Part shown: one piece after another, positions 3,001 through 50,980 of the stretch
Numbering within the stretch: the stretch's first letter is position 1
Layout: the number at the start of each line of letters is the position of its first letter
Source of the DNA: Thermodesulfobacteriota bacterium
Lineage (GTDB): Bacteria > Desulfobacterota > BSN033 > UBA1163
Reading direction: 5' to 3'
Assembly: GCA_041947025.1 (NCBI GenBank)
Contig: JBHGBJ010000004.1
Span: forward strand, 85,580-149,579
Length of the DNA: 64,000 bases
Program-made: the position numbers and the translations under genes
Notes under the pieces: model-generated
Database searches by the model: none
Seen by the model: the letters and a program-made list of their open reading frames with translations, nothing else
What the model was told of the DNA's origin: nothing

Positions 3001-4801
3001 CGAGCTGCACACGGCCCTCACCCATAACGGGGAAACAACCAATTACCGCACCATGCTGAACCGGGTCTTGCAGTTCAATCTCTCACCTCTTGCTCAGACC
3101 GATACAGCAGTGGCTTCCCTGAAGCTCCATCTGCTCAGCCAATACCTCCATTATCCTTTCGATGCCCTGGTCGAATCTTTCTCGCCCACGACCGGGTGGA
3201 ACCTGACCCAGCTGCCGCCTGATGTGGCAGAGCGGTTCCAACGGGTGCAGGAAGTGGAGTTGGAGAGTGCTCCGGACGGGCCTTACCAGTATCTCTGCGG
3301 CCGCATCGATCCCTACCGCCGGGTGATCGAACGTTTGGATATCATCGACCCGTCACTGCTCCGACCCAATGTGGCGATGCTCTATGATGACGGGAAGAAC
3401 TTCGTCAGCATCATCTGCTCCGAAAAGCAGGGGAGCGATGCCGGGATTCAGGAGCTTTATCGACTCGGATTGATGCAGAGCACCTTCCCTCCTCTCACCT
3501 TTACGGTCAAGACGGGCATGGTGAGCAGGGTCTTCTATGACGAGAAGGGACAGATCACAGGACACGAAGTGCTCGACAAATTCGGCCAACCCATAAAGAT
3601 ACCCTGCGGGAAATTTCCCGCTTCAGAGGCTTCACCTTCATCAGGCCATCAAGGAATCGAGGCCAATCTTGGACTGGATCCTTCAATCTTCTTTAAGGAG
3701 CAATTGCCTCTCTGGGGATTTAGTGAGTTTGAATCGGCATTGGAAAAATTGAAGAAGGACCTGCCTCCTTTGCGAACGGTTGAGGAGCTCACCCAAGTGT
3801 ATGACCGTCTGCGTGCGTGGGATATCGGAAACAAAGACAGAGGGGCACTGCTGGACATTGCCCAGCGGCACATCTATCTCCTCTTGGATGGGATCGACGG
3901 TGGAAATGGAATGATCCGTGTAACTCTTGGGGAAGCGGAAAAGCTTAACCCGCCTGAAAATCCGGATCATGTGCTGGTCGTCGATGCAACGGGATTTAAA
4001 CCCGAGGGAACCGATCCTCTTCGGGTATTGAGCTGTTTCTTGGACCATAGCCATCGCATGGGGTGGAGAAAGTTCATCGTTTACAGAGTGACGGGCCAGC
4101 GAGGCATCGGCATGGGAACGGGCTCGGGCTCAACCGTTGATACGGTCCTGGATGTCTTCGGAAGCCCCGGGGAGTACTGTGGGGCCTTCAACATGGGCAC
4201 CTGGGTGCGGGTCCATGGCCATGCTCAGAACTTCACCGGCATGGTGATGCATTCCGGAACGCTGGAGATTCATGGTGATGTGGGGAAGGTACCAGGATAT
4301 TCTTCAAAGGGAGGGACATTTAACATTCTCGGGAACGTGGTGGACCGAGGCTGGGTCTGTGCGGTCAGTGACCCCCGAGGTCCGGGTTTGGAAATCAATA
4401 TCGTAGGAACGGCATACGAACACCTTTGCCAGGCCTTCATGGGTGGATCCGTCATCATGCTTGGGCTCTTCCGGGGAAGCGATGGAATCCTCCGTCAAAT
4501 GGAGTCTCCCTATAGCGGAGCAAAGATCCTGGCGGGCGCCTCTGCCGGCGAGGCAATCTTCTACGATCCCCGCAAGAGACTGGAGGAGGCTCAATACAGA
4601 GGGTGTGTGGCACAGCCGATCGATGATAAGAAATGGGAGGAGATCGTCAGCCGCTTGATGAAGCTGGAGAATATCTTTGCCCTGGGCTTCTCCCGGGAAA
4701 ACAGCCACCTCGCCGTAAAGATTGGCGGCCATCCCCGGACGATCAAACCCGAAGACTTCCGATGGATTATCCCAAAAGGAGAGCTGGAGGGGTATCATTA
4801 A
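1..4801 (+). CDS. Glutamate-synthase-like multidomain fusion protein, 5' end off-window (reading frame open from nt 2). Domain order: tail of an FMN/TIM-barrel-like segment, then a complete GltB FMN domain with 3Fe-4S Cys triad, then a class-II glutamine amidotransferase domain, then the GXGXG domain
   Basis: Motifs seen in translation: GAGMSVGSIGPG...TGEGG (FMN domain start); GCVRDRNCESGCRSG (3Fe-4S Cys cluster); internal DCGVAAIVS (class-II GATase N-terminal nucleophile motif); GQRGIGMGTGSG...GNVVDRG (GXGXG domain). No in-frame stop between nt 2 and the first ATG at 113. Confidence 0.75.
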   Translation, partial: SPRFQEELESLFQSPFDILCLSSDYDPDKGYYPTTDAVPAVHRFLVGRKLRHRFSILAAGGIRSAADSQKTIQRGANGIKIDWPVLMTADPMARQKFLKKEPIQISNDAGALAKRIANIIRVWNVQMIEVLGASGFKEIRKTVGEENRLLIFDDLEERIYDHFKNQDRLERNRKTNQARIQREGNGYGWRYSQLKNLIQTSPLPHRFYNCDLRPSCYRIFDRDHVWPASLIASVGRMASGDRDTLLLGRTEERGNLGDGFDFINVLFQDNPDRVPEEKLDEVSTGLQIAPQLKLKAPFVGAGMSVGSIGPGTWRARVLASRALETQMDTGEGGYPTIFILDAKWNPLDLTDHQVTLLGKLMEERKLIPVEDLVKRVHQEMDESPEYQELLDALSRYPASMPVQFVPIVTPEDQPYVSTQLKTGLFGVTKETIRRARRVVIAYSQGAKQGVGGHLLGRKVFGLVSRLRGVGEGISLISPFPFHNCYSIEDVKAFIDAVRMINRHTTICIKVSPSPDIEFICAGLARIAKDNQMVIEIWLDGPRGGTGAAPDIIKGQMGMHMEYAIPICHEKLMDDGLRDHVVFMGSGGFRTWGDVVKGVALGLDGVILGTADLVAIGCVRDRNCESGCRSGISTIEPKMQLLRDVEINTRQIINFRAILQAQTARALAALHMKDLRQLRGRYDLIEWPLLEERVRQRRQRRAEAFSPHPSARQEEEGLRPEPQRENTIPVPSDCGVAAIVSNHFIPSHVMDLMLDRMANRGMDGVGIWKGGCYPSHMDRYALHVLIKGSLQSDLEQEYQSRDPDIDPAEIRRRARQEILAKRCQIMKGISDHYFKGLELNDFGNDFEKCRIPYKRDPEGHEQDFRLFGEKDPGDVFRFFARVRREELYRFIENVLLNDTIWPPRQMRYRQVTKENYRGYTDFLCEAEDEYIYRLSRRITRENYAEVREKKAAVLSCGKNSGCWKSDGRHIPWELPEAPVNVIHRRLATGSVVDQMNAHPFAELHTALTHNGETTNYRTMLNRVLQFNLSPLAQTDTAVASLKLHLLSQYLHYPFDALVESFSPTTGWNLTQLPPDVAERFQRVQEVELESAPDGPYQYLCGRIDPYRRVIERLDIIDPSLLRPNVAMLYDDGKNFVSIICSEKQGSDAGIQELYRLGLMQSTFPPLTFTVKTGMVSRVFYDEKGQITGHEVLDKFGQPIKIPCGKFPASEASPSSGHQGIEANLGLDPSIFFKEQLPLWGFSEFESALEKLKKDLPPLRTVEELTQVYDRLRAWDIGNKDRGALLDIAQRHIYLLLDGIDGGNGMIRVTLGEAEKLNPPENPDHVLVVDATGFKPEGTDPLRVLSCFLDHSHRMGWRKFIVYRVTGQRGIGMGTGSGSTVDTVLDVFGSPGEYCGAFNMGTWVRVHGHAQNFTGMVMHSGTLEIHGDVGKVPGYSSKGGTFNILGNVVDRGWVCAVSDPRGPGLEINIVGTAYEHLCQAFMGGSVIMLGLFRGSDGILRQMESPYSGAKILAGASAGEAIFYDPRKRLEEAQYRGCVAQPIDDKKWEEIVSRLMKLENIFALGFSRENSHLAVKIGGHPRTIKPEDFRWIIPKGELEGYH

Positions 4802-4881
4802 AAATCGGGACACATACCATTTTCCCAGCACTTATCCTTAAATAGCGGAAACATCAAAAATGGTATGTGTCCCGATTTTTT
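4801..4881. repeat. REP doublet: two inverted copies of AAAATCGGGACACATACCATTTT separated by about 27 bp, directly after the stop of the glutamate-synthase-like gene
   Basis: Exact inverted 23-mers at 4801-4826 and 4856-4881; same motif recurs at 31507, 32398, 49399 and 50954. Confidence 0.75.
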
Positions 4882-4938
4882 ACTTGAAATCACCTTGGAG
4901 ACTTGGTAGGATATGAAAAAAAAGGGGGGTGATCGGTT

Positions 4939-5226
4939 ATGGCAGTGAGGATTATCATTGATCGCAAAGTGAAGAAAGGGAAGGAATCTGATTTTGCAAA
5001 ACTGCTCAGGGAATTGAGACTGAAGGCTGTTCCGTCAAAAGGTTATATTTCCGGCGAAACGCTTCGGGCCTTGGATGATCCCTCTAACTATATTGTGATC
5101 ACCACATGGCAGAGCGCCGATGAGTGGAAGGAGTGGGAGAAGAGACCGGAGCGAAAAAAGATTCAAGCCAAGATCGAAAAACTGATGGCAAGGCCGACAA
5201 AAACGAAGATCTATTTGCATGCATGA
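4939..5226 (+). CDS. Small ABM-domain (antibiotic biosynthesis monooxygenase-like) protein
   Basis: 95 aa, ferredoxin-fold-like pattern (IIIDRKV...ITTWQSADEW), ATG start. Confidence 0.5.
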   Translation: MAVRIIIDRKVKKGKESDFAKLLRELRLKAVPSKGYISGETLRALDDPSNYIVITTWQSADEWKEWEKRPERKKIQAKIEKLMARPTKTKIYLHA

Positions 5227-5234
5227 CTTGTCAC

Positions 5235-5261: not shown

Positions 5262-5278
5262 AAGAAACGGGAAATTTC

Positions 5279-6599: not shown

Positions 6600-6604
6600 A
6601 TTCT

Positions 6605-10929: not shown

Positions 10930-11100
10930 GGTGACCTTCCGATACCGGGATCGCAAGGATAACGACAGGATCAAGTCCATGACTCTGGATGCTTCAGAGT
11001 TCATCCGGCGCTTTCTCCTTCACATCCTGCCCGATGGTTCGTGAAGATCAGGCATTACGGAATCCTGAGCAACCGGGTGAATGGGGTCAGGTCTTGCAAT
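10930..11100 (+). pseudogene. Remnant of the C-terminus of an IS91-family (Y2 HUH) transposase, containing a frameshift
   Basis: Translation YRDRKDNDRIKSMTLDASEFIRRFLLHILPDG then, in the +1 frame, FVKIRHYGILSNR; matches the conserved C-terminal signature of IS91/IS801 transposases. No N-terminal part is present. Confidence 0.5.
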
Positions 11101-12010
11101 AACACATTTTATTTGATAGGGTATCTTCATGACAAGGCCTTTACGAATTGAGTTCGCGGGAGCTGTATATCATATCACATCCAGAGGCAATGCCAAGCAG
11201 GCTATTTTCATCGATGATCAAGATAGAGGTCGGTTTTTTGACGTATTATCGGTTGTTGTGGAGAGATTTAATTGGTTCTGTCATGCCTATTGCCTGATGG
11301 ACAATCATTATCATATTTTGATTGAAACCCCTAGCGGAAATTTATCAAAGGGGATGAGAGAGTTGAACGGGGTGTATACTCAAGGGTTCAATCAAAGGCA
11401 CAAACGTGTAGGCCATCTCTTTCAGGGGAGATATAAGGCGATAATAGTGGAAAAGAACAATCATTTAATGTCTCTCTGTCGATATGTGGTCTTAAACCCT
11501 GTGAGGATTGGTTTAAAAGAAAGACCTGAGCAGTGGAAATGGAGCAGTTATAGCTCTACTATTGGAACAGAGAAAAGACCTGCCTTTTTGACCACTGATT
11601 GGATACTCTCGCAATTTGATGGGAGAAAAAGAGTAGCCATGGAGAAGTATAGAAGGTTTGTGATGGAGGGGGTCGATAAAGAATCTCCATGGGAGACATT
11701 AAGGGGGCAGATCTTTTATGGGACAGATGAATTTATCAAACAACTCGGCGGCTTACTGGATGAGAAGGGGGATATAAAGGAGGTGCCTAAGCTCCAGAGA
11801 TATGCGGCAAGGTCCTCTCTCAGTGAACTGTTTAGCGAGAAAAAAGCGAAGAATAGAAGAGTTAAGGATAAGATTATTCATGCTGCTTATGTTCGTCATG
11901 GTTATACAATGAAAGAAATTGCAGAACATTTGGGTTTCCATTATGCTACTATAAGCCGGGCAATGAAACGGATTGAGCAGAGATAAGATGTATGATTGCA
12001 AGACCTGACC
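11081..12010 (+). mobile_element. IS200/RAYT-like unit: HuH Y1 transposase gene bracketed by 18-bp inverted repeats GGGGTCAGGTCTTGCAAT / ATTGCAAGACCTGACCCC
   Basis: Inverted repeats at 11081-11098 and 11993-12010 read directly, flanking CDS 11129-11986. Confidence 0.55.
11129..11986 (+). CDS. Y1 HuH tyrosine transposase (IS200/REP-associated-tyrosine-transposase-like) with a C-terminal helix-turn-helix extension
   Basis: 285 aa; HuH motif DNHYHILIE, catalytic-Tyr region RYKAIIVEK..., C-terminal DnaA-domain-IV-like HTH (MKEIAEHLGFHYATISRAMKRIEQR). Confidence 0.7.
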   Translation: MTRPLRIEFAGAVYHITSRGNAKQAIFIDDQDRGRFFDVLSVVVERFNWFCHAYCLMDNHYHILIETPSGNLSKGMRELNGVYTQGFNQRHKRVGHLFQGRYKAIIVEKNNHLMSLCRYVVLNPVRIGLKERPEQWKWSSYSSTIGTEKRPAFLTTDWILSQFDGRKRVAMEKYRRFVMEGVDKESPWETLRGQIFYGTDEFIKQLGGLLDEKGDIKEVPKLQRYAARSSLSELFSEKKAKNRRVKDKIIHAAYVRHGYTMKEIAEHLGFHYATISRAMKRIEQR

Positions 12011-12056
12011 CCACTTCATTTAGCCATCAAGCCAGGAAGGTAGAGAGGAGGTTCTC

Positions 12057-30145: not shown

Positions 30146-30309
30146 TCTTCATCATTGATTATTGTTGATTGAATTTTGGGTTCCAATCGTCAATCATAAG
30201 AAACCACATCTTTCGACGGTGACCAGCCAGCCGTGAATGATTGTCTCCCCACTCAGCCTCCCCTTAGATTAAGGGGAGGTGTGGAGGGGTTACTCTAAAT
30301 GGGAATGCT

Positions 30310-30828: not shown

Positions 30829-30927
30829 ATCTCTCCTCCTTTTCTTAAATTTTAAAGCAAACGATCTATAAACAAATCAGTTAAAAACTGTATTTTACAG
30901 AAAGAAAGACCGTATTTTTGGCTGACC

Positions 30928-30970
30928 GGAACGTGCCCCGCGAGCCCCGCCTTGTAGGCGGGGTAAAGGG
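30928..30970. other. Nested GC-rich palindrome GTGCCCCGCGAGCCCCGCCttgtaGGCGGGGTAAAGGGGCAC in the divergent intergenic region between the usp and PRC-barrel genes
   Basis: Read directly. Confidence 0.4.
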
Positions 30971-31056
30971 GCACAATAGGAACGATGATACCTTTCCGGG
31001 GAGCTTCACTTGAAACAGGCCGTATGAGTAATTACCTTTTTAGTAAGAAAGGAGTG

Positions 31057-31509
31057 ATGGAAATGAGCAAATCATTAAGTCTTTTCGCTGTGTTATCCAT
31101 TCTTGTGCTGGGGCTGATGGTTGCCCCTCTATACGCTTCCGAACCGGCTTCGAGGGGTTGGAACAGAGCCTACCAGACGAGCGAGATTATCGGATCATGG
31201 GTTATGAATCACGAGGGAAGATATCTGGGAAAAGTTCAGGATCTTGTGGTGGACGCGGAGGGTCGCATCATCTTCGCGATCGTTGGATACTGGCCATGGG
31301 ATTGGAGAATCATCAACGATAATTCAGTGGCCGTCCCCTTCAATGATTTGACTTATGATCGCAGTGGAAAAACTCCGGTGGCCATCGCTGACATAACCTG
31401 GGAGAAATTCCAGTCCGCTCCCAAGTTTGCAAAATCCGAATTGACAGATCGCCAGCGGGCAGAAGAGGTTTATCGATACTTCGGGCAGCAACCCTATTGG
31501 ACTCGCTAA
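31057..31509 (+). CDS. Secreted PRC-barrel-domain protein
   Basis: Signal peptide MSKSLSLFAVLSILVLGLMVAPLYA; PRC-barrel-like core (VMNHEGRYLGKVQDLVVDAEGRIIFAIV); RBS AGGAG upstream of the 31057 ATG. Confidence 0.5.
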   Translation: MEMSKSLSLFAVLSILVLGLMVAPLYASEPASRGWNRAYQTSEIIGSWVMNHEGRYLGKVQDLVVDAEGRIIFAIVGYWPWDWRIINDNSVAVPFNDLTYDRSGKTPVAIADITWEKFQSAPKFAKSELTDRQRAEEVYRYFGQQPYWTR

Positions 31510-32425
31510 AAATAGGGACACATACCATTTTTCTTGACATTGATCGTAAAAGGGATTTTAATGATCTTATGTCACGAATTGCCCGAATCATCGGAGCCGG
31601 GTATCCCCATCATATTGTCCAACGGGGCAACAACAGGGAAAAAGTCTTTTTTGATCCCGGAGACTACCAAAGGTATCTCTCCTTCGTCTCAAGATATTCA
31701 GAAGAGAAAGAAGCCGCTATCCTTGCTTACTGCCTCATGCCTAATCACATCCACCTGCTCGTGAGGCCCTCGGACGAGGAAAATCTCGCCAAGATGATGC
31801 AGGGGATCACACTCTGCTACAGCAAATATTTTAACGGAGAAAATGGGCGGACCGGAAGACTCTGGGAATGCAGATACCATTCCACTGTCATCGATGGGGA
31901 GAGATATCTGTGGGCCGTCAGCAAGTATATTGAGAATAATCCTGTCAGAGCCGGGATGGTCAAAAAACCCGAGGATTACCTCTACTCCAGCGCGAAGAAT
32001 CATCTTTTGGGAATCGAGGATCCCCTTCTCAAAGACCCACTCTTCGATAGCAGCCAGCTGAAAGAATACCGAAGCTTCATGAAGTTAGAGGAAGGAAAAG
32101 GTATTCTGGAGGAGATAAGGAAGCAGACAAGATCGGGCAGACCTCTCGGTGATGAGGGATTTCTCAAGATTCTTTCTGAGAGAATGGGTTGCAGCATGTC
32201 TTTTAGGCAAAGGGGAAGACCGAGGAAGAAGACAGAAGGATGCTGACGACGCGGAGAAAGGATGACGCGGTGATAGCGAAACGAGGAGAGACTTTTTCTC
32301 CGAGTCTCCGTGCCTGCGCGCTGAAGCGCAGCGTGTCTCCGATTCCCGGTGTGAGAAATATTCTGCGTCACTCCATCTCGTCTGGATATTTTGACATCCT
32401 TAAAAATGGTATGTGTCCCGATTTA
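31507..32425 (+). mobile_element. REP-associated tyrosine transposase (RAYT) unit: RAYT gene bracketed by inverted REP copies (AAAATAGGGACACATACCATTTTT at 31507-31532 and AAAAATGGTATGTGTCCCGATTT at 32398-32425)
   Basis: REPs read directly in inverted orientation, flanking CDS 31569-32246. Confidence 0.7.
31569..32246 (+). CDS. REP-associated tyrosine transposase (IS200-like Y1 HuH transposase)
   Basis: HuH motif PNHIHLLVRP, catalytic-Tyr region RYHSTVIDGERYL, N-terminus MSRIARIIGAGYPHHIVQRGNN typical of RAYTs. Confidence 0.75.
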   Translation: MSRIARIIGAGYPHHIVQRGNNREKVFFDPGDYQRYLSFVSRYSEEKEAAILAYCLMPNHIHLLVRPSDEENLAKMMQGITLCYSKYFNGENGRTGRLWECRYHSTVIDGERYLWAVSKYIENNPVRAGMVKKPEDYLYSSAKNHLLGIEDPLLKDPLFDSSQLKEYRSFMKLEEGKGILEEIRKQTRSGRPLGDEGFLKILSERMGCSMSFRQRGRPRKKTEGC

Positions 32426-33027
32426 TGAAGGTAACTCATTTTCCTAATGCGGCTTTTGATGTGGTGGCCATGGCCGCCTCTGCCGGCGGTCTCACGGCCT
32501 TGAGCAAGATCCTCGCCGCCCTGCCTCAAGATTTTCCCGCGGCGATTCTCGTCGTTCAGCACCTGGACCCGCGGCACCGGAGCCTGATGGCTGAGATTCT
32601 CAGCCGGCGCACACCCCTGAAGATTCAGGAGGCCAGAGAAGGAGATACCTTGGCCCCCGGGACCGTTTACATCGCCCCTCCGAACCGGCACCTCTTGGTC
32701 AACATTGACGGCACCCTCTCCCTTTCTCAGTCGGAATTGGTTCACTTTGTCCGGCCTTCTGCCGACTTGCTCTTCGAGTCCGTGGCAGCCATTTACAAGG
32801 ATCGTGCGATCGCCGTTGTCCTCACCGGAACCGGAAGTGACGGCACCATGGGAGTTCAGGCGATTAAGAAGATGGGCGGTACGGTCGTTGCCCAGGACGA
32901 GAAGACATCGGAGTTTTACGGTATGCCGAGTGCAGCCATCCAGACCGGCAACGTTGATTTCATCCTTCCCCTCGATGAGATCCCCTCAGCCCTGATCACC
33001 CTGGTCATGAAAGGAGACGCCTTATGA
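32425..33027 (+). CDS. CheB-type protein-glutamate methylesterase catalytic domain (no receiver domain)
   Basis: VVAMAASAGG...HxxxSLMAEIL...GTGSDGTMG...GMP motifs of the CheB methylesterase fold. Confidence 0.8.
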   Translation: MKVTHFPNAAFDVVAMAASAGGLTALSKILAALPQDFPAAILVVQHLDPRHRSLMAEILSRRTPLKIQEAREGDTLAPGTVYIAPPNRHLLVNIDGTLSLSQSELVHFVRPSADLLFESVAAIYKDRAIAVVLTGTGSDGTMGVQAIKKMGGTVVAQDEKTSEFYGMPSAAIQTGNVDFILPLDEIPSALITLVMKGDAL

Positions 33028-34883
33028 ACGCCGCCCAACCGGACAAGGAATTCGAAGCGCTCCTCGAATACCTTCAAAGCACCCGTGGGTTTGATTTCGC
33101 GGCCTACAAGAGGCCCAGTCTGATGCGTCGGGTGACCAAGCGCATGCAGATGATTAAGATAGATAAATTCTCAGACTACATGGACTACCTGGAGGTTCAT
33201 CCCGAGGAGTTTGCACAGCTCTTTGACACCATCCTGATTAACGTCACCTCTTTTTTCCGTGATCAACCTGCCTGGGACTTTCTTTCCCAGCAGATTCTTC
33301 CGAAAATCCTGGAAGCGAAGAGGTCGAACGATCCCATCCGCGTCTGGAGCGCCGGCTGCGCCTCCGGCGAAGAAGCTTACAGCATTGCCATTTTGTTTGC
33401 AGAGGCCCTCGGCCCTGATGCATTTCGTGATCGCGTGAAGATCTATGCCACGGACGTGGATGAAGAGGCTCTCACCCACGCCCGCCACGCAAGCTACAGT
33501 GAAAAGGACCTCGATCCTGTTCCTCCGGAGCTTCGGGAAAAGTATTTTGAGCATGGGGCGAGCCGCCTGATTTTTCGCAATGACCTCCGCCGCTCCGTCA
33601 TCTTCGGTCGTCACGACCTGGTCCAGGATGCTCCCATCTCGCGCCTCGATCTTCTCACATGCCGCAACACCCTGATGTATTTCAACGCGGAGATTCAAGG
33701 CCGCATCCTGGCCCGGTTCCATTTCGCCCTCAATGATCCCGGCTACCTCTTCCTGGGAAGGGCTGAAATGCTTCTGACACACACCAGTATCTTCACTCCG
33801 GTAGAGCTGAAATGCCGTATCTTCTCGAAAGTCCCCAAGATTCAGATGCGCGACCGGCTCCTCGTCCTTGCCCAGGCAGGAAACATGGAGGTCGGAAACC
33901 ATCTGGCCAGACAGTTGCGTGTCCGCGATGTCGCCTTCGAATCGTCTCCCATGGCGCAGATCGTGGTCGATGCCGATGGAAACCTGGCCATGGCCAGCGA
34001 ACGGGCAAGGACGCTGTTCGGTCTCACCCAGAGGGATGTCGGACGTCCCTTTCAGGACCTTGAACTGTCTTATCGACCGATCGATCTGAGATCCCTGATC
34101 GACAAATGCGAAAACGAGAGGCGCATCGTGAAGGCGGAGAATGTCCAACGTCAACTGTCGGATGGATCGCCCCAGTCTCTTGAAATCCAGCTGACCCCCT
34201 TGGTCGAGAACGGCGCAACCATTGGGGTGAGCATCGTTTTTAACGATCAGACCCGCTATCTTAAGCTCCAGGAAGAGCTTCAGCGCAACCAACAGGAGCT
34301 CGAAACCGCCTACGAAGAGCTTCAGTCAGCCAACGAAGAGCTCGAAACCACCAACGAGGAACTCCAGTCGACCAATGAAGAGCTTGAAACCACCAACGAG
34401 GAGCTCCAGTCTTCGAACGAAGAGCTGGAAACCATGAACGAAGAGCTCCAATCCACGAACGAAGAGCTTTCGACGATCAATGAGGAGCTGCGGCAGCGCA
34501 CGGAAGAGCTCAACCAGACAAACGCTTTTCTTCAATCGATCCTCGGCAGCCTCCACGGCGGGGTTGCCGTCTTGGATGCAAGGCAAAACATCATCTCCTG
34601 GAGCCGCAGGGCAGAGGACCTCTGGGGACTTCGCCCCGAAGAGGTCCAAGGCCGGTCTTTCGTAAGCCTCGATATTGGCCTGCCCGTAGAAGAGCTGAAG
34701 ACGGCGATTCGGGCCTGTCTCGTGGCAGATTCCGAATACGAGGAAGTCATCGTCGATGCGGTCAATCGCAAGGGCAGGACCATCAATTGTCGCGTCACCT
34801 GCACCCCCATTGTCGGAGCGGCCAAGGAGCGCCATGGCGCCATCCTGATGATGGAAGAGCTCGATTCCGGATGCAAGAAATAG
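33024..34883 (+). CDS. CheR-type SAM-dependent methyltransferase fused to a coiled-coil with repeated NEELQST/NEELETT heptads and a C-terminal PAS domain
   Basis: CheR N-terminal and MTase motifs (VWSAGCASGEEAYSIAI); 21-bp imperfect tandem coding repeats at about 34290-34500; start overlaps the cheB-like stop. Confidence 0.8.
   Translation: MNAAQPDKEFEALLEYLQSTRGFDFAAYKRPSLMRRVTKRMQMIKIDKFSDYMDYLEVHPEEFAQLFDTILINVTSFFRDQPAWDFLSQQILPKILEAKRSNDPIRVWSAGCASGEEAYSIAILFAEALGPDAFRDRVKIYATDVDEEALTHARHASYSEKDLDPVPPELREKYFEHGASRLIFRNDLRRSVIFGRHDLVQDAPISRLDLLTCRNTLMYFNAEIQGRILARFHFALNDPGYLFLGRAEMLLTHTSIFTPVELKCRIFSKVPKIQMRDRLLVLAQAGNMEVGNHLARQLRVRDVAFESSPMAQIVVDADGNLAMASERARTLFGLTQRDVGRPFQDLELSYRPIDLRSLIDKCENERRIVKAENVQRQLSDGSPQSLEIQLTPLVENGATIGVSIVFNDQTRYLKLQEELQRNQQELETAYEELQSANEELETTNEELQSTNEELETTNEELQSSNEELETMNEELQSTNEELSTINEELRQRTEELNQTNAFLQSILGSLHGGVAVLDARQNIISWSRRAEDLWGLRPEEVQGRSFVSLDIGLPVEELKTAIRACLVADSEYEEVIVDAVNRKGRTINCRVTCTPIVGAAKERHGAILMMEELDSGCKK
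34290..34500 (+). repeat. Coding 21-bp tandem repeats (about 9 units) encoding heptads E-E-L-(Q/E)-(S/T)-(T/A)-N
   Basis: Read directly in both DNA and translation. Confidence 0.7.
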
Positions 34884-34912: not shown

Positions 34913-37870
34913 ATGAAGGCAACAAACAAGACCAAAGCAGATCTGATCGAAAAGAACAAGGATGCGGGGCGGAGCCTTAAAGAGGCCAAAGAGAAGCTAT
35001 CAACTCACCGGAAAGATGAAGCTACGCTTCTCCTTGCCCAGGAACTGGCGCACACCATCCTTGACCAGTCAACAGAAGTCATCATGATCTGCGATGAAAA
35101 TGGCAAAATTATTCAGGCGAGCCAGATGGCACACCGGTACTTCGGAGCAAAGATACTACGCCAGCAATTTGATTCTCTCTGCCGTTTGTCGATCACATCC
35201 CCTTCTCCCTTGCAACCAAATCAGTTTTCCGTCTCCTCCGTTTTGTCGGGCAAGATCATCCGCTCTCTGGAAGTCACTCACAGAGGAGATGATGCCAAAG
35301 AGTCCTATTTCCTCCTGAGATCAAGGCCCTTAACCCATAATGGAAAGAGAATCTTGGGTTGCGTCGTCAGCCTGACTGACATCACCGAGCGCAAGCAAGC
35401 GGAGGAGGAGCTCAGAAATTCTCGTAACGAGCTGGAAAGAAGGGTTCTGGAACGAACTGCCGAACTGTCAGCGACCAATGAACAATTGAAGACCGAAATC
35501 GACATCCGCAAGCAAACCGAAAAGGTTCTGGAAAAGATGACCCGGGAACTGTCGGAACGAGTCAAGGAAATAAACTGTCTCCATTCTGTCTGCTATTCCA
35601 TTGAAAAGAGGTACCTTGGAGTAGATGAGAAACTTGAAAATATTGTTCACCAAATTCCGTCAGGGTGGCAGTTTTCCGAGATCGCCTGTGCGAGAATCAC
35701 TCTGGAAGAAAATGAGTACCGAACCGATAACTTCAAAGAGACCCCGTGGAGGCAGGCGAGTCAAATCGTGTTTGATGGCCGCGAAGTCGGGGCGATCGAG
35801 GTCTACTATCTGGAAGAAAGACCCGAGGCGGATGAGGGACCTTTCCTCAAGGAGGAGAGGGATCTCATTAACACGATTGCCATTGAATTAGGAGAGATGA
35901 TTGCCCATCTCCAGGCGGACGAGGCCATCAAAAGAGAACGGCAGCGATTTAATGATGTCCTGGAGATCCTGCCGGTTTACGTGGTCCTCTTGTCACCGGA
36001 TTATCACGTGCCTTTTGCCAATCGCTTCTTCCGGGAGCGCTTCGGTGAGTCCCAGGGTCGGCGCTGCTTTGAATACTTGTTTGACCGAAGGGAGCCCTGC
36101 GAGGTTTGTGAAACCTATACCGTTGTGAAGACCCACGCCCCTCACCACTGGGAGTGGAAGGGCCCGGACAATCGGATTTACGACATCTACGATTTCCCCT
36201 TTACGGACACGGACGGTTCCCCCCTCATCATGGAGATGGGCATCGACATTACCGAGCGGAAGCGGGCAGAAGAGGCCCTGAGGACCGCCCACCAATACAA
36301 CCGGAGCCTCATCGAGGCAAGCCTTGATCCCCTCGTTACCATAGACGCGAACGGCAAAGTGATGGATGTAAACAGTGCTACGGAGCGGGTGACCGGCGTT
36401 TCCCGCAACGAAATCATCGGCAGCGATTTCTCAAGTTACTTCACAGAACCGGAGAAGGCAGAGGAAGGTTATCAAAAGGTCTTCGCAGAAGGATCGGTCA
36501 GAGATTATCCCCTTGCCATCCGTCACGAATCGGGCAAGGTCACCGATGTCTTATACAACGCCGCCGTCTATAAGAACGAGGCCGGTGAAGTCCGGGGCGT
36601 TTTTGCTGCGGCAAGGGACGTGACTGAGCTCGCGGAGACCAGGAAGCATATCGAAGCGACCAATGCTCTCCTCAGTCTCTTTGTCAAGATGCGAGCACGG
36701 AGCGATTATCTCGATGCAGTCCTGAAGCTGATCCAAGCCTGGACCGGCTGCCGATGCGTGGGCATCCGGGTATTGAATGAAAGAGATTATATCCCCTATG
36801 AATCCTATGTGGGATTCGGCCGGGAGTTCTGGGAATCGGAGAATTTGCTCTCCGTGAAATATGACCAGTGCGCTTGCATCAGGGTGATCACCGGCAACCC
36901 CGATCCTCAAGATCTTCGGACCATGACACCGGCAGGCTCTTTTCGTTGTGAGAATACCTTTGAATTTGTCGGAGGCCTATCGGAAGAGGAGAAGGCAAGG
37001 TTCAGAGGCGTCTGCATCCAGAATGGGTTCAGGTCGGTTGCCATCATTCCCATTCGTTACCGCGATCGGGTCCTCGGTGCAGTTCATCTGGCAGACGAAA
37101 GAGCGGCCCATGTGCCGCTCACGAGAATAGAATTTATCGAATCCATGGCGCCCCTGATCGGAGAGGCAATGAACCGGTTCAATTTGGAGGAAGAATTGAA
37201 AGATTCGGAGAACCGGCTCCGGTATCTCTCTTCTCAGCTTCTGACCGTCCAGGAAAATGAGAGGAAACGGATTTCAAGGGAGGTTCATGACAGTCTCGGA
37301 CAAACCCTTGCTGCGATAAAATTCGGATTGGAAAGCAAGCTGAGCCAGATGGGCAAAGGTTCCGCACCGCCGGGAGTCTCTGTAGAAGGTCTCATCTCTC
37401 TGACTCAAAACGGGATCGATGAGGCCCGAAGAATCCAGATGGATCTCAGACCTTCGATCCTCGATGATCTCGGGATCATCTCCACCCTCAGCTGGTTCTG
37501 CCGGGAATTCCAAAGGATCTATCCGGCGATCCGGATCGAAACGCAGATCGCTGTCCAGGAAGAAGAAATATCCGGCCCCCTCAAAACCGTGATCTATCGG
37601 GTGATGCAGGAGGCCCTGAATAATACCGCCAAACATAGCAAGGCAGACCGCGTCCGCCTTTCTCTGGGAAAAGCCGACTCTAAGATGCAGCTGATCATCG
37701 AAGACAATGGGAGAGGATTCGACCCGGAAGGTCTGATTTTAACCCAAGGCCCTGAGAGAGGAATCGGCCTCAGCAGCATGAGAGAGCGAACCGAATTTGC
37801 CGGCGGGGTTTTCACCATCGAAGCGGCTATCGGAAAAGGAACGACGATCAAAGCGAGCTGGCCCATTTGA
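34913..37870 (+). CDS. Multi-sensor signal-transduction histidine kinase (several PAS domains, a GAF domain, HisKA_3 dimerisation/phospho-acceptor and HATPase_c)
   Basis: H-box REVHDSLGQTLAAIKF (HisKA_3, pairs with NarL/LuxR response regulators); N/G boxes near the C-terminus; PAS-like blocks; Cys cluster RRCFEYLFDRREPCEVCE. Confidence 0.8.
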   Translation: MKATNKTKADLIEKNKDAGRSLKEAKEKLSTHRKDEATLLLAQELAHTILDQSTEVIMICDENGKIIQASQMAHRYFGAKILRQQFDSLCRLSITSPSPLQPNQFSVSSVLSGKIIRSLEVTHRGDDAKESYFLLRSRPLTHNGKRILGCVVSLTDITERKQAEEELRNSRNELERRVLERTAELSATNEQLKTEIDIRKQTEKVLEKMTRELSERVKEINCLHSVCYSIEKRYLGVDEKLENIVHQIPSGWQFSEIACARITLEENEYRTDNFKETPWRQASQIVFDGREVGAIEVYYLEERPEADEGPFLKEERDLINTIAIELGEMIAHLQADEAIKRERQRFNDVLEILPVYVVLLSPDYHVPFANRFFRERFGESQGRRCFEYLFDRREPCEVCETYTVVKTHAPHHWEWKGPDNRIYDIYDFPFTDTDGSPLIMEMGIDITERKRAEEALRTAHQYNRSLIEASLDPLVTIDANGKVMDVNSATERVTGVSRNEIIGSDFSSYFTEPEKAEEGYQKVFAEGSVRDYPLAIRHESGKVTDVLYNAAVYKNEAGEVRGVFAAARDVTELAETRKHIEATNALLSLFVKMRARSDYLDAVLKLIQAWTGCRCVGIRVLNERDYIPYESYVGFGREFWESENLLSVKYDQCACIRVITGNPDPQDLRTMTPAGSFRCENTFEFVGGLSEEEKARFRGVCIQNGFRSVAIIPIRYRDRVLGAVHLADERAAHVPLTRIEFIESMAPLIGEAMNRFNLEEELKDSENRLRYLSSQLLTVQENERKRISREVHDSLGQTLAAIKFGLESKLSQMGKGSAPPGVSVEGLISLTQNGIDEARRIQMDLRPSILDDLGIISTLSWFCREFQRIYPAIRIETQIAVQEEEISGPLKTVIYRVMQEALNNTAKHSKADRVRLSLGKADSKMQLIIEDNGRGFDPEGLILTQGPERGIGLSSMRERTEFAGGVFTIEAAIGKGTTIKASWPI

Positions 37871-37965
37871 ATTTCAGATTTCAGATTTCAAATTTCAAAT
37901 TTTAAATCTCAGATTGAAGAAAGACAAACCATTTGAATTTCAGATTTCAAATTGAAGATCCATCA
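37871..37965. repeat. Heptamer array (GATTTCA / AATTTCA units); the inverted complement of the array lies at 38400-38450
   Basis: TGAATTTCAGATTTCAGATTTCAAATTTCAAATTT versus CAATCTGAAATCTGCAATTTGAAATTTGAAATT. Confidence 0.6.
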
Positions 37966-38399: not shown

Positions 38400-38450
38400 T
38401 CCAATGCGTTTCATGTTTCAATCTGAAATCTGCAATTTGAAATTTGAAAT
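38400..38450. repeat. Right-hand heptamer inverted repeat, partner of 37871-37965
   Basis: See the partner feature. Confidence 0.6.
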
Positions 38451-38455: not shown

Positions 38456-39115
38456 TTATTCTCGTGAGACCAGGCCTTTTTCGATGGCGAAGGCGGTCAG
38501 GGCTTGTACATTATGGAAGTCCAGTTTCTCCATGATGTTGGCCCGGTGTTTCTCAATCGTTTTCACGCTGATGCAAAGCTCCTGGGCAATCTCCTTATTC
38601 TTATATCCTTCTGCAATCATCTTCAGGACTTCACGTTCCCGGGGGGTCAGCGATTCCCAGGCCGTGCGCGTTTTCAAGGTTTTCCTTCCTTCCAGGTACC
38701 CCTCGATCACTTTCTCGGAAACCTCCGGGCTGATATAAGGTTTGCCGCTCAACACTTTTCTGACCGCCATCACTAATTCTGTGTGGGTGGAATCCTTTAA
38801 AAGATATCCGTCAGCTCCCGCCTTCAGCGTATTGAGAATATACTCCTCAGCCCTGTGGACGGTCAAAACCAGGATCCTCGTCTTCGGACACTGCCTCTTG
38901 ATCTCCCGGATGGCTTCCATTCCATTCATCCGGGGCATGGAAAGATCGGTCAGGATCAGATCCGGCTTATGTTCCTCAACCTGTCGGATCGCCTCACGGC
39001 CATCTTCAGCCTCCGCCACGATCTCAAATTCCGGGTGAGAAGAGAGAAGGGATTTTAAGCCCTCCCTGAGGATGGTATGGTCTTCAGCGATTACAATTCG
39101 AAACTTTTTCTCCAT
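38456..39115 (-). CDS. NarL/LuxR-family response regulator (REC plus LuxR HTH)
   Basis: Likely start MEKKFRIVIAEDH; LILTDLSMPRMNG receiver Asp; C-terminal LTPREREVL...IAQEL.ISVKTIEKHRANIMEKL. Confidence 0.85.
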   Translation of the reverse strand: MEKKFRIVIAEDHTILREGLKSLLSSHPEFEIVAEAEDGREAIRQVEEHKPDLILTDLSMPRMNGMEAIREIKRQCPKTRILVLTVHRAEEYILNTLKAGADGYLLKDSTHTELVMAVRKVLSGKPYISPEVSEKVIEGYLEGRKTLKTRTAWESLTPREREVLKMIAEGYKNKEIAQELCISVKTIEKHRANIMEKLDFHNVQALTAFAIEKGLVSRE

Positions 39116-41875: not shown

Positions 41876-42532
41876 CTATTCTTGGGAAACCAATCCCTTC
41901 TCGATGGCGTAGGCAGTCAAGGCCTGGACATTATGGAGGTTTAACTTGTCCATGAGGTTGGCTCGATGCTTCTCGACCGTCTTCTCACTGATACAGAGCT
42001 CATCCGCAATCTCTGTGTTCTTAAACCCCTCGGCGATCATTTTCAGGATTTCCCGTTCCCGGGGGGTAACCGTATCCCAGGGAGTCTGAGGCGTTAGGGC
42101 CTTCTTCCCTTCCAGATACCCTTCAAGCACCTTATCGGAGATTTCCGGGCTAATATAGTGGCTGCCACTTAGGACTCTTCTTACTGCCATGACCATTTCA
42201 GTGTGGGTAGAATCCTTCAGGAGATACCCGTCTGCTCCGGCCTTGAAAGTGGCAAGAATGTATTCATCTGCCTTATGAACAGTGAGGACCAGAACTTTTG
42301 TCTTTGGAAATTGCCTCTTGATCTCCCGGATAGCCTCCATCCCGTTCATCCGGGGCATGGAAAGGTCGGTCAGGATAAGATCGGGCTTCAATCTTTCAAC
42401 GCACCGGATCGCTTCCCGGCCATTTCCTGCTTCTCCCACGATCTCAAACTCAGAATAAGCGGAGAGAAGAGCCCGCAACCCTTCCCTGAGAATCGTGTGA
42501 TCCTCAGCAATAACAATCCGGTGTTTCGCCAT
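41876..42532 (-). CDS. NarL/LuxR-family response regulator, paralog of 38456-39115 (protein roughly 80 percent identical, DNA roughly 75 percent)
   Basis: Likely start MAKHRIVIAEDH; same motif set as the paralog. Confidence 0.85.
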   Translation of the reverse strand: MAKHRIVIAEDHTILREGLRALLSAYSEFEIVGEAGNGREAIRCVERLKPDLILTDLSMPRMNGMEAIREIKRQFPKTKVLVLTVHKADEYILATFKAGADGYLLKDSTHTEMVMAVRRVLSGSHYISPEISDKVLEGYLEGKKALTPQTPWDTVTPREREILKMIAEGFKNTEIADELCISEKTVEKHRANLMDKLNLHNVQALTAYAIEKGLVSQE

Positions 42533-48904: not shown

Positions 48905-48960
48905 ATCATCCTCCTCCGTTCCTTTCTCTTCAATAACGAAGAGCGAAAGGGTGAAGTCCA

Positions 48961-49431
48961 TTAATCGAGGCCCTTCACCAGATTGAATGTAATCTCCTGA
49001 AATTTTAGTACGGGTTTGCCTGAATGGTCTTTCATGAACTCCTTTGCATCGCCTTCGTTTTGGAAAGGAATGAGCTCTTTTCCCATGGGCCCGAAGACAT
49101 TGCTTCCTGCGACGTAATAGGCCTTGTACCCATCCGTAAAAGTCAGGCTGTAGTAATCTTTGACATAAATGGAATCCGTTTTCTTCGAGGGTTGATGCTT
49201 CTTCAGGTTGAAGTAATACTTGAACATATCTTTTGCCCCGTCGAAAACAACATAGGTCCCGTCTGTAAAGACAATCTCGGCAAGCCAGTCAGGATATTTT
49301 GCAACGAACATCCCGCAGACCGGGCATTTGTCCTTCGGAGAAGGGTTGATCGGCTTTCTTTCCCCGCCGTTCACATCAGCCGCCAGCATCAGGACCAGAA
49401 AAATCGGGACACATACCATTTTCTTATTCAT
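48961..49431 (-). CDS. NosL-family copper-chaperone-like protein; the N-terminal codons are encoded by a REP copy
   Basis: DKCPVCGMFV metal-binding motif as in NosL; N-terminus MNKKMVCVPIFLVLML, where KMVCVPIF is the translation of the REP at 49399-49423. Confidence 0.55.
   Translation of the reverse strand: MNKKMVCVPIFLVLMLAADVNGGERKPINPSPKDKCPVCGMFVAKYPDWLAEIVFTDGTYVVFDGAKDMFKYYFNLKKHQPSKKTDSIYVKDYYSLTFTDGYKAYYVAGSNVFGPMGKELIPFQNEGDAKEFMKDHSGKPVLKFQEITFNLVKGLD
49399..49423. repeat. REP copy AAAAATCGGGACACATACCATTTTC (forward orientation)
   Basis: Exact match to the REP core; inverted partner at 50954-50980. Confidence 0.75.
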
Positions 49432-49631
49432 CCTTCGGCATTCCCTTCGTCTCTAAGATAAATTGCGTCTCGATGGGCTCTTACCCACACAAACCATTGA
49501 CCTTCGACAGGCTCAGGCCGAACGGCGGTCCGTTGAAATGAAGTGATTTTTCCGTTCATACTGAGATTGTCGAAGCATAAAATCAATCTGGGCAACAGCC
49601 CCTCGATCTGTCACAGATGGAGAATCACGCT

Positions 49632-50183
49632 TCATGGATGCTTTTGCTCCATGCCTTTGTGGTCCATTTTTTTTTCTTCCATCATCTTCATGCGACGAGC
49701 CTGTCGTCTTTCCCGGATCATCTTCGTGTCAGCGTACATGTCTTCATAGGAAGCCTTAATCGCCTGATCAAAACTGGCAATCACACCACCATTCTCCTTG
49801 ATGAACTTTTCGGCTTCTTCCTTCTTTTCAAAGGCCCACTTCGCCCGGTGTGTCATAACCCCCATCTTATTTCCGCCCATCACCCAGAAAGCCTTCTCCA
49901 CATCGATCAGCGCCTTTGAGCCATAATCGCCCACCGTGATCGCCTTAGGGGTCTTATCCAGCTGCAGGGCAAGTTCAACGGCGGCACAGTGGATGCTGCA
50001 TGTCCCAATCGACGTTCCATCGTCATACTCGATGAACACGCGGCTATGAGCATACTGCTGCCGGTTCATTCCGCAGTACTTGCAGGACGGGTACTTCTGA
50101 ATGTCTTCCTGACCCAAAGAGATTCCTGTCATGCAAAAGCAAAATATGAAAGCCACTGTTAAAAAAATGTATATCCGTTTCAT
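49632..50183 (-). CDS. NosL-family copper-chaperone-like lipoprotein/secreted protein (second paralog)
   Basis: Signal peptide; CKYCGM motif; Met/Lys-rich C-terminal tail. Confidence 0.55.
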   Translation of the reverse strand: MKRIYIFLTVAFIFCFCMTGISLGQEDIQKYPSCKYCGMNRQQYAHSRVFIEYDDGTSIGTCSIHCAAVELALQLDKTPKAITVGDYGSKALIDVEKAFWVMGGNKMGVMTHRAKWAFEKKEEAEKFIKENGGVIASFDQAIKASYEDMYADTKMIRERRQARRMKMMEEKKMDHKGMEQKHP

Positions 50184-50365
50184 AGAGGTCTCCTTTCGAA
50201 CGTAAGAAAGATCAGACGGGGAATTTTCCCCCGCCCTTTTCAGAGAAATCGGTCAACCCGTGAATCAACCCATTCATAATTTCGAACAGATATCCTGCCT
50301 TTCGAGTCGAGATTTCCTGCCTACCCATCGGTCCAGAAGTATTTCAGGCCCATCACCACCCCCTT

Positions 50366-50797
50366 TCAACCAACGGAAAATTCTCCCCTTTTCCACTTTT
50401 CTTTTTCCGTTTCAGTCTGAGATTCTTCCTGCCTGTACTCGCATTTCTCACATAGACCCTGCTCTTCAAACGAGACCTGGCAAAAAGTACCCCTCTCCTT
50501 CCAGCACGGTTTAGCACATCCCTGCCTAACGGACTGCCGCATGCACTTCAGGCAGCCATCCTTGAACCAACAGGGATAGAAGGTCAGGTGGTATGCCACA
50601 CCAGCCAGATTGAGACCTTTATCAAGAAGGCCTTGAATAAAGGAAAGGCGCTTTAGATCTTGGTCAGTGTACAACCGATGATCGTGTTTTCGAGGAGGTT
50701 TGAGAAGGCCATGGCGCTCCCAGACGCGGAGAGTTTCCGGGTGCACGCCCATGAGATCCGCCACAACGCCTATTGTATAAAGAGGTTTTTTCTCCAT
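50366..50797 (-). CDS. MerR-family transcriptional regulator with a Cys-rich C-terminal domain (10 Cys)
   Basis: N-terminal MerR HTH (YTIGVVADLMGVHPETLRVWERHGLL); C-terminal CWFKDGCLKCMRQSVRQGCAKPCWKERGTFCQVSFEEQGLCEKCEY. Confidence 0.8.
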   Translation of the reverse strand: MEKKPLYTIGVVADLMGVHPETLRVWERHGLLKPPRKHDHRLYTDQDLKRLSFIQGLLDKGLNLAGVAYHLTFYPCWFKDGCLKCMRQSVRQGCAKPCWKERGTFCQVSFEEQGLCEKCEYRQEESQTETEKEKWKRGEFSVG

Positions 50798-50953
50798 CCA
50801 AAGACCTTCAAAAGAAACTTTGAGCTATTTTCAATACCCTTTTATAAGAAACTCTATCCGATTGGGATAAGCGTTCATATGGGTTCAATGATGTATTCTC
50901 GGGAAAAATGGACTGTATTTTTCGGATACTCTGACGAAATAGAGCAAGTGTAA

Positions 50954-50980
50954 AAAAAATGGTATGTGTCCCGATTTTTT
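50954..50980. repeat. REP copy AAAAAATGGTATGTGTCCCGATTTTTT (reverse orientation)
   Basis: Exact match to the REP core. Confidence 0.75.

Follow-up and report, generated by a model that had tools for sequence, protein, structure and literature searches.

A probable TIRtron in a Thermodesulfobacteriota genome: a Y1 transposase gene between inverted copies of a dispersed 24-nt repeat

In a 64-kb stretch of a Thermodesulfobacteriota genome (GenBank assembly GCA_041947025.1, contig JBHGBJ010000004.1, positions 85,580 to 149,579; referred to below as the window, with positions counted from its first nucleotide), two copies of a short dispersed repeat stand on either side of a gene for an HUH/Y1 transposase, which raises the question of what kind of repeat-transposase system this is. 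A first-pass annotation had read the repeat as a repetitive extragenic palindrome (REP) and the gene as its REP-associated tyrosine transposase (RAYT). Our analysis indicates that the kind of system was recognised rightly and the sub-kind was not: the element is probably a new member of the TIRtrons, RAYT-like genes placed between long terminal inverted repeats (TIRs) that share the sequence GGGGWSAS, whose enzymes are called TIRYTs (Di Nocera et al. 2013, PMC3733652). In the account that we consider likely, the element, here TIRtron 1, consists of a single-copy TIRYT gene between inverted 24-nt TIRs, and the repeat has spread in trans as solo copies and a doublet. The class has already been described and is little studied, and this locus is a further member of it.

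The repeat unit and the Y1 protein between its middle pair

Searching the window with the 23-mer AAAATCGGGACACATACCATTTT and up to three mismatches returned exactly six matches, against none in 100 dinucleotide-preserving shuffles of the window (chance expectation 0). The six copies form three inverted pairs, as had been proposed, and each pair is convergent, a plus-strand copy being followed by a minus-strand copy; the sites reported earlier are confirmed with offsets of 0-5 nt, and the quoted motif, given as 22 bp, is 23 nt long. The copies of AAAATCGGGACACATACCATTTT at 31509-31531 (+, with A for C) and 32403-32425 (-) have one mismatch each. The full repeat unit measures 24-25 nt and reads AAAAAT[C/A]GGGACACATACCATTTT(T); the general form of the 24-nt terminal repeat is A4-5-T-N-GGGACACATACC-A-T4-6, and the motif pattern with its variable position written as N is AAATNGGGACACATACCATTTT. 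The copies in the window and the parts of TIRtron 1 are as follows.

4800 to 4823, plus strand: TIR, left arm of the solo doublet, complementary to 4857-4880 at 24 of 24 positions
4824 to 4856, no strand: doublet spacer of 33 nt, unlike every other doublet spacer
4857 to 4880, minus strand: TIR, right arm of the solo doublet, with the T-run next on the plus strand
31508 to 31532, plus strand: left TIR of TIRtron 1 (A variant, AAAAATAGGGACACATACCATTTTT)
31534 to 31562, plus strand: putative sigma-70-type promoter adjoining the TIR, with TTGACA at 31534-31539, a 17-nt spacer and TTTAAT at 31557-31562
31569 to 32246, plus strand: TIRYT1, a 225-aa HUH/Y1 protein (NCBI MFB3884221.1)
32247 to 32402, no strand: 156-nt segment from the TIRYT1 stop to the right TIR (which starts at 32402), found in this genome only
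32402 to 32425, minus strand: right TIR of TIRtron 1 (C variant)
49399 to 49422, plus strand: solo TIR, within the 5' end of the NosL gene at 48961-49431 (-)
50956 to 50979, minus strand: solo TIR, intergenic, upstream of the MerR-like gene at 50366-50797 (-) and the SLT gene at 51050-51769 (+)

Five of the six copies in the window, among them the right arm of TIRtron 1, have C at the variable position, as against 0 of 179 copies elsewhere; the C variant thus appears to be private to this lineage and to have been amplified within this genome. The leftmost pair had been described as a classic REP doublet with a 27-bp spacer: an inverted pair is indeed present, its spacer is 33 nt, and it is not a classic REP. 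The doublet (4800-4880) folds into a hairpin with a 24-bp stem, both as DNA (-24 kcal/mol, z -9.5) and as RNA (-38.7 kcal/mol, z -8.9). A single TIR folds at -2.1 to -3.1 kcal/mol (z -1.4 to -3.3), its sole pairing being a 5-6 bp A:T stem plus two G:C pairs, and for the two C-variant solo copies tested 14-23 of 200 shuffles folded equally well. By direct reading and with a position matrix, neither a GT[AG]G nor a CGTC tag was found on either strand of AAAAATNGGGACACATACCATTTT. The window gave no matches in Rfam and tRNA scans, a simple terminator scan did not flag the doublet because its loop is longer than 8 nt, and a literature search for the motif string returned unrelated primer sequences only.

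The middle pair flanks the HuH Y1 gene at 31569-32246, as noted in the first-pass annotation, and the product of this gene, TIRYT1, matches Pfam Y1_Tnp (PF01797, 1e-18). Repeat family and cognate HUH/Y1 gene are therefore found in one window, with TIRs on both sides of TIRYT1; to that extent the description of the locus as self-contained holds, the copy count covering 64 kb. By tblastn, the window contains one close copy of the TIRYT1 gene. Among the NCBIfam models, TIRYT1 scored 79.9 bits with REP_Tyr_transpos (cutoff 80) and 23.9 bits with the IS200/IS605 model (cutoff 55). Its motifs are N59-H60-I-H62, W99-E100, Y120-IEN-N124-P125, S140-S141 and an AT-hook-like C-terminal RGRPRK, which matches the AT-hook core of HMGA-type proteins. 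In an alignment of 25 homologues H60, H62, Y120, N124 and P125 are invariant, W99-E100 and S140-S141 are invariant or nearly so, and RGRPRK (G216-R217-P218) is nearly invariant. Searched against PDB, the profile of these 25 sequences found E. coli TnpAREP (4ER8) first (3.5e-6), with IS200-type chains behind; 4ER8 was not recovered by single-sequence phmmer, so that the 25-sequence profile was needed. With the AF2 model of TIRYT1 (pLDDT 70.7, pTM 0.74), the top Foldseek match was again 4er8_A (E 8.5e-9, TM 0.74), followed by the TnpA proteins of IS608, ISDra2 and IS200. By NCBIfam, by the PDB profile and by predicted fold, TIRYT1 resembles E. coli TnpAREP more than IS200 TnpA.

With the IS200/IS605 elements (IS608 and ISDra2 TnpA), TIRYT1 shares the HUH/Y1 core fold, the absence of target-site duplication and, probably, single-strand DNA chemistry. 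It differs from them in other respects: Y-x3-NP, the class-2 (TnpAREP-like) signature, stands where IS200 transposases have Y-x3-Q (PMC6006769), and the protein has 225 aa with an 85-aa C-terminal extension against ~150 aa. IS200/IS605 elements come with TnpB, in multiple near-identical copies and with distinct subterminal hairpins, whereas TIRYT1 is a single-copy gene at a fixed locus, bounded by true terminal inverted repeats and with PRC-barrel and CheB genes as its neighbours. The possibility, raised beforehand, that the protein would turn out to be a canonical IS200/IS605 TnpA with an accompanying TnpB was thus not borne out, given Y-x3-NP, 4ER8 as the best structural match and no adjacent TnpB.

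The resemblance to described TIRtrons extends to several features. Both TIRtron 1 and a second element in the window, TIRtron 2 (see below), have a Y1 gene flanked by inverted repeats unrelated to GTAG REPs, and their TIRs are of the GGGGWSAS type (GGGGACAC/CGGGACAC, and GGGGTCAG in TIRtron 2). The commonest variants of the family studied here are AAATAGGGACAC and AAATGGGGACAC, the latter an exact fit to GGGGWSAS; GGGGACAC, which also fits, occurs in 59 of 185 family copies, the window copies read CGGGACAC or AGGGACAC and agree at seven of eight positions, and the TIR of TIRtron 2 (GGGGTCAG) agrees at all eight. The distance between TIR and gene is roughly constant, the TIR family occurs as singles and dimers (described TIR families are moderately abundant and occur as singles, dimers and groups; PMC3733652), and the proteins have 225-285 aa with a post-core SS and a C-terminal extension, which in TIRYT2, the enzyme of TIRtron 2, holds a helix-turn-helix (HTH). 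The class is prevalent in delta-proteobacterial lineages, matching the host. TIRYTs largely correspond to TnpAY1 subclass 2.1, that is, Bertels Group 1 (Quentin et al. 2018, PMC6006769). Within class-2 TnpAY1 this is the largest group; the same study found no dispersed repeats for it and gave as its consensus NHVH/NH[YF]H, W[EQ]/FQ, YIELNP/Y[IV]HLNP, an SS tail, ~238 aa and an HTH in 2.1.2. From this published consensus TIRYT1 departs in its NHIH and YIENNP.

A classical REP/RAYT system (REPtron or REPIN), in which palindromic hairpins are cleaved by the RAYT in the manner of E. coli TnpAREP, we regard as unlikely here, and the difference between it and a TIRtron is largely a question of sub-kind, not of reality. 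Like E. coli TnpAREP (4ER8) and the enzymes of Pseudomonas REPINs, TIRYT1 has the class-2 Y-x3-NP and the same fold; its gene is single-copy, chromosomal and syntenic, as in Group 2/3 RAYTs, and lies within inverted copies of a dispersed, extragenic repeat, of which convergent doublets can form long hairpins. The repeat itself was called a classic REP, and this is where the likeness ends: REPtrons have a GT[AG]G guide and a palindromic unit, whereas the TIR has no GT[AG]G/CGTC tag and its single unit folds weakly (-2 to -3 kcal/mol). Moreover, TIRYT1 has W-E in place of the W-Q of the GTAG-reading subclasses, the doublet spacers are heterogeneous, the TIR is almost invariant across species where REP repeats are species-specific, and it fits the GGGGWSAS of TIRYT elements, a separate class in the literature. 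The REP/RAYT label is thus not automatic for any Y1 gene with flanking repeats; in the strict sense a REP has a palindromic unit and a GTAG tag, and the repeat at this locus has neither.

A conserved layout in a fixed chromosomal slot

The arrangement of TIR, promoter, gene and TIR recurs in orthologues. On 17 contigs selected by the motif, a TIRYT 68-85% identical to TIRYT1 is set between a (+) and a (-) TIR copy, and orthologues chosen by protein alone (P0110, P0089, P0101 and P0027, 69-74% identical; loci L136, L139, L141 and L143, where L numbers denote fetched loci outside the window, most of them metagenomic) all have a TIR on both sides. In L139 and L141, which also have their downstream kinase in common, an ACATCCC variant is shared by both TIR arms within each locus. 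In 15 loci 37-39 nt lie between the end of the left TIR and the ATG, and CTTGACA directly after its T-run is invariant in 14 of 14 orthologous TIRtrons, in which an A/T-rich -10-like hexamer follows ~17 nt past CTTGACA and the ATG comes after another 6-9 nt. In the window 6 nt separate TTTAAT (31557-31562) from the ATG at 31569, and we infer that TTGACA-N17-TTTAAT is a sigma-70-type promoter, whose mRNA would be leaderless or nearly so. Counted from the stop codon, the right TIR begins after 0-1 nt in six loci, after 36-52 nt in three, and after 156 nt in the window. The 156-nt segment (32247-32402) has internal inverted repeats and is without a match in the orthologous TIRtrons or the other fetched loci.

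The chromosomal position of the element is conserved as well. In L136 and L143 the gene order is that of the window, namely YjeF-like, BFN, TsaE, aspartokinase, LeuA-like, HHH_3 and TIRtron, followed by CheB-CheR or a PAS/HisKA_3 kinase, RR-GerE, a response regulator (RR), superoxide dismutase (SOD) and ferritin. The slot is shared by ~10 lineages, the TIRtron occupying it in the window, L136 and L143 and in seven further metagenome contigs of sufficient length (L027, L033, L046, L055, L071, L092 and L125). Protein identities to the window are listed below.

Aspartokinase: 86-89%
LeuA-like: 83-88%
CheR: 88%
CheB: 93.5%
Sensor kinase: ~70%
TIRYT: 69-74%

Across the syntenic lineages the TIRYT protein is 69-82% identical, and among five of them L027 and L033 are closest both in housekeeping proteins (95-98%) and in TIRYT (92%). 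TIRtron 1 is thus apparently a resident element passed on vertically, with a rate of evolution that, judged from these comparisons, exceeds that of the adjacent housekeeping genes. Site-specific insertion on independent occasions is a less parsimonious reading, since the genes directly beside the TIRtron are not the same in all lineages. As compared among the window, L136, L143, L027, L033 and L071, the genes to the left of the TIRtron are none, DUF2231, or Usp plus PRC-barrel (window 30146-31508), and to the right CheB-CheR is present or absent (window 32425-34883), with SOD directly adjoining in L071; this hints that the TIRtron flanks are a local hotspot of gene gain and loss.

These data bear on the reading that the locus is an autonomous insertion sequence (IS), in which the whole TIR-gene-TIR unit transposes and the solo copies and doublets are its decay products. 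The terminal inverted repeats around a transposase gene would suit such an element, Bertels Group 1, the most IS-like of the RAYT groups, also exceeds the others in duplication rate and in presence on plasmids (Bertels et al. 2017, PMC5581495), and the second TIRtron in the window lies beside an IS91 remnant. We nevertheless hold this reading to be improbable: in contrast to subclass 2.1 and Group 1, described as IS-like and without dispersed repeats, the gene here is syntenic and apparently vertical and its TIR is dispersed. TIRYT1 is present as one copy per 64 kb and in the same slot in ~10 lineages at 69-82% protein identity, no close homologue was found on plasmids or in phages (no TIRYT1 homologue above 60% identity in PLSDB plasmids), the doublet spacers of 1-94 nt hold no remnant of the gene or of the CTTGACA promoter, and the private C variant is found in dispersed 24-nt copies, not in whole elements.

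Dispersed copies and their placement relative to genes

Beyond the window, the motif was found on at least 120 JGI metagenome contigs, and 165 unique contexts were obtained from metagenomes and metagenome-assembled genomes (MAGs). Information content in these contexts stands at ~2 bits for positions -3 to +20 and at zero beyond them, so that the unit is sharply bounded and its flanks are unrelated. A scan of species representatives found the motif in nine other genomes, once or twice each, comprising Syntrophaceae and 'delta proteobacterium' MAGs, a Scalindua MAG, Maricaulis and Cellulosilyticum. Exact 21-nt TIR matches lie at 3880-3900 of L002 (Maricaulis maris) and 3719-3739 of L003 (Cellulosilyticum ruminicola), with ~0.3 chance matches expected over the whole collection and no TIRYT within the 8 kb fetched; these matches, one in an alphaproteobacterium and one in a clostridium, may have been left by horizontal spread. 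Viral contigs yielded no TIR copy. REP systems reach tens to hundreds of copies per genome; the density of TIR copies is six per 64 kb in the window and five per 20 kb in L136.

Several observations indicate that copies are gained and lost. Solo copies differ in position between syntenic regions, L136 having three more within 20 kb than the window and L143. The doublets of L040 and L025 are 82% identical over 121 nt, spacer included, in unrelated flanks, and L048 (11300-11606) and L095 (1560-1890) are 98% identical with the same doublet. These two loci differ at the outer TIR boundaries: a 31-nt indel coincides exactly with the left one, and 7 nt (TATTTTT) are duplicated at the right one. Among close pairs 22 are convergent and none is divergent, with doublet spacers of 1-94 nt; widely spaced pairs in other contigs are found in any orientation. 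[quoted passage not shown] There is no clear target sequence either, T preceding the A-run in only 52% of copies. In L007, L024, L040, L043, L050, L057, L073 and L090, full TIR copies have partial tandem ones on their outer side; these partial copies always comprise the outer half, end near GGGACACAT(T) and have a period of 15-19 nt, and may be the footprint of the cleavage/joining point or result from replication slippage.

That the repeats sit at gene ends, as the first-pass annotation had remarked for the window, is confirmed for four of the copies. The TAA stop (4799-4801) of the open reading frame (ORF) 113-4801, a glutamate-synthase-like gene of 1562 aa, takes its two A's from the first two positions of TIR 4800-4823, and TIR 31508-31532 overlaps with its A-run the TAA stop (31507-31509) of the PRC-barrel gene 30985-31509. 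The outermost base of TIR 32402-32425 is the A of the CheB start codon (CDS 32425-33027), and one further copy lies inside the 5' end of NosL1 (48961-49431, -). The remark generalises to the family, because at 36% of copies, against 2.8% of random positions, a long ORF (at least 80 codons) running into the outer end has its stop within -14 to +3 nt of that end. Some 25% of copies overlap an upstream stop codon, which is TAG within AAA-TAG-GGA in 21 copies and TAA made with the A-run in 17. Deep positions in open frames (at least 100 codons) were found for 22 of 148 copies (15%), compared with 65% of random positions in the same contigs.

A role of the TIR as routine supplier of start codons was rejected, the in-TIR ATG frame being used by only 3 of 153 copies. 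NosL1 is one of these three genes and an exception to the extragenic rule: the NCBI start (P0121, 152 aa) is the ATG inside the TIR, and in its signal peptide MNK-KMVCVPIF-LVLMLAADVNG the stretch KMVCVPIF is encoded by the TIR on the minus strand. For annotation it is thus relevant that copies overlap stop codons and, in NosL1, hold an annotated start codon. The third pair encloses a NosL-like gene, NosL2 (49632-50183, -), and a Cys-rich MerR-like gene (50366-50797, -), as had been reported; the idea that it brackets a 1.5-kb REP-bounded segment did not hold, the NosL2-NosL1 tandem being conserved in repeat-free genomes. Homologues of NosL1 in two unrelated contig families have a second NosL gene immediately before them and no TIR there, and NosL2 (inside the bracket) and NosL1 (outside) would accordingly be a native tandem. 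No compositional step was found at the TIRs of the third pair, and wide pairs occur in any orientation, so that a composite or cargo element was discarded. Because the tandem occurs elsewhere without the repeat, the two copies are most simply independent solo insertions.

The strong placement at stop codons is a point in favour of an immobile host motif, that is, a binding or termination signal at gene ends maintained by selection, with the Y1 protein as a domesticated DNA-binding regulator. In agreement with such a motif, the 24-mer is nearly invariant while the protein diverges by ~30%, the left TIR adjoins the -35 box of its own gene, the protein ends in an AT-hook-like motif and the locus is apparently vertically inherited. 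Yet the catalytic HUH and Tyr residues are invariant, copy positions differ among syntenic relatives, which implies that sites are gained and lost, a lineage-private variant occupies five sites, the same doublet occurs in two unrelated contexts, and near-identical loci differ by indels exactly at TIR ends, all of which makes an immobile motif improbable. Mobilisation as a MITE by an unrelated DDE transposase, to which the short TIRs, the 70-140 bp doublets, the AT-rich context and a DDE transposase gene in the window (IS1595 family, 51901-52749) might point, with the adjacency of the Y1 gene a coincidence, is hardly credible, given 32 pairs without consistent target-site duplication, TIRs at a fixed 37-39 nt from the Y1 gene in every orthologue including the protein-selected ones, and an IS1595 gene not flanked by the motif. 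This gene (+) encodes DDE_Tnp_IS1595 with a zinc ribbon and lies ~1 kb from the solo TIR at 50956.

Proposed mechanism and the other Y1 genes

In the TIRtron model, the TIRYT would recognise the GGGACAC-containing outer half of the TIR, with the C-terminal AT-hook-like RGRPRK docking on the A/T tracts that flank the GC-rich core, and would, as its conserved catalytic residues imply, cut and rejoin single-stranded DNA by means of Tyr120 and the HUH metal site. Two convergent TIRs would pair into a long hairpin, making TIR-x-TIR, with the A-tract/GGGACAC end outward, the mobilisable unit; this is suggested by the unstructured single TIR, the 24-bp stem of convergent copies, the occurrence of only convergent close pairs and the same polarity of the pair around the gene. 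On this view, solo copies would have arisen as one-ended products or as halves left by decay. Binding to the TIR probably autoregulates the TIRYT gene, because the left TIR adjoins the -35 box, and the doublets, with A-tract, 24-bp stem, U-tract and long loops, probably act as bidirectional terminators or mRNA 3' stabilisers.

A number of points weigh against this model. The score of TIRYT1 falls 0.1 bit short of the curated NCBIfam REP_Tyr_transpos cutoff, and the protein matches no single subclass of Quentin et al. cleanly, NHIH and YIENNP being like 2.4 and WE, SS, length and TIR like 2.1. The hairpin recognition known for TnpAREP and IS608 is inapplicable to solo copies, which are the majority, because a single TIR is almost unstructured. 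Exact copies number two at most in any GTDB species representative, a set to which the source MAG does not belong, and gene conversion among copies could likewise have produced the private C variant. Occurrence in two contexts was found for a single doublet family (L040/L025), the other spacers being unrelated, and the case for unit-wise replication is accordingly weaker here than for Pseudomonas REPINs. The five syntenic lineages, one close pair excepted, lie at nearly equal distances from one another (star-like), and tree congruence or rank correlation between TIRYT and housekeeping proteins is therefore uninformative. Finally, the literature holds no biochemical or mobility evidence for any TIRYT, and the term itself occurs in only two works.

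More tentatively, the TIRYT lineage may represent a long-domesticated, vertically inherited enzyme that keeps a REPIN-like population of 24-nt TIRs in every host lineage, and the hosts may have co-opted copies as gene-end punctuation. Within this tentative picture, the TIR may give the TAG or TAA stop to about a quarter of the upstream genes, the doublets may terminate transcripts in both directions, and one copy may have become part of a signal peptide. If so, the picture of an ancient, vertically inherited replicator would extend from gamma-proteobacterial REPINs to non-palindromic TIRs in Thermodesulfobacteriota, and the functionless subclass 2.1 would gain a testable substrate. Among RAYT-like proteins the TIRYTs (subclass 2.1, Group 1) have the widest distribution, yet they have no known substrate, activity or biology. 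For such work the locus is a compact test case, offering one enzyme, a near-invariant and bounded 24-nt site with an adjoining conserved promoter, a natural hairpin-forming doublet, and syntenic relatives in which gain and loss of copies can be scored. Points of interest to specialists are the syntenic, apparently vertically inherited TIRYT with a near-invariant TIR in a Thermodesulfobacteriota sediment clade, the private variant and the overlap with stop codons. With bacterial MITEs such as Correia/NEMIS, RUP and ERIC, the family has in common short, TIR-bounded, non-coding doublets near genes that can fold as RNA; those elements use a DDE transposase, whereas here a Y1 HUH protein is found, target-site duplication is absent and most copies are single 24-nt TIRs.

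A tblastn search of the window with TIRYT1 found a 36%-identical paralogue at 11129-11986, the gene of TIRtron 2.

11082 to 11112, plus strand: left TIR of TIRtron 2, 31 nt, TGGGGTCAGGTCTTGCAATAACACATTTTAT, which contains GGGGTCAG
11129 to 11986, plus strand: TIRYT2, a 285-aa Y1 protein (NCBI MFB3884202.1) with NHYH, FQ and YVVLNP
11983 to 12013, minus strand: right TIR of TIRtron 2, 31 nt, overlapping the TIRYT2 stop codon

TIRYT2 matches NCBIfam REP_Tyr_transpos (78.9 bits) and has the SS motif and a C-terminal HTH_23/28/38; by motif comparison, its motifs, SS, HTH and 285 aa are in keeping with subclass 2.1.2. The TIRs of TIRtron 2 differ from those of TIRtron 1 and have two copies only in the window. 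The left one adjoins a frameshifted C-terminal fragment of an IS91-family Y2_Tnp (~10930-11085, +; PF04986, 3e-16), which suggests that TIRtron 2 lies in or beside a degraded IS91 element. In fetched loci, two more RAYT-like genes were found to have flanking repeats of their own (in L004 a TIR, in L028 a true palindrome), and the statement that each Y1 gene has its own repeat thus holds because the genes of TIRYT1, TIRYT2, L004 and L028 are each so flanked. In L028 (100-1040), the RAYT-like gene (29% identity) has four copies of the palindrome TTCCACTTCGTAAGTGGAA around it, as in a REPtron; this contig also carries a solo TIR of the present family.

The window contains other repeats as well. 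AT-rich repeats of the ATTTCAAATTTCAGATT type at 37863-37960 and 38417-38450 form a 34-nt inverted pair (88% complementary) around ~500 nt and sit between a sensor-kinase gene and a GerE response-regulator gene. A 300-nt direct repeat (38457-38756 and 41877-42176, 74% identity) apparently lies in two paralogous response-regulator genes (-). Two further repeats are coding: five 42-nt EELQ-type coiled-coil repeats within the CheR-PAS gene (34272-34460, +) and three tandem 78-nt Pro-rich repeats (62219-62452, -).

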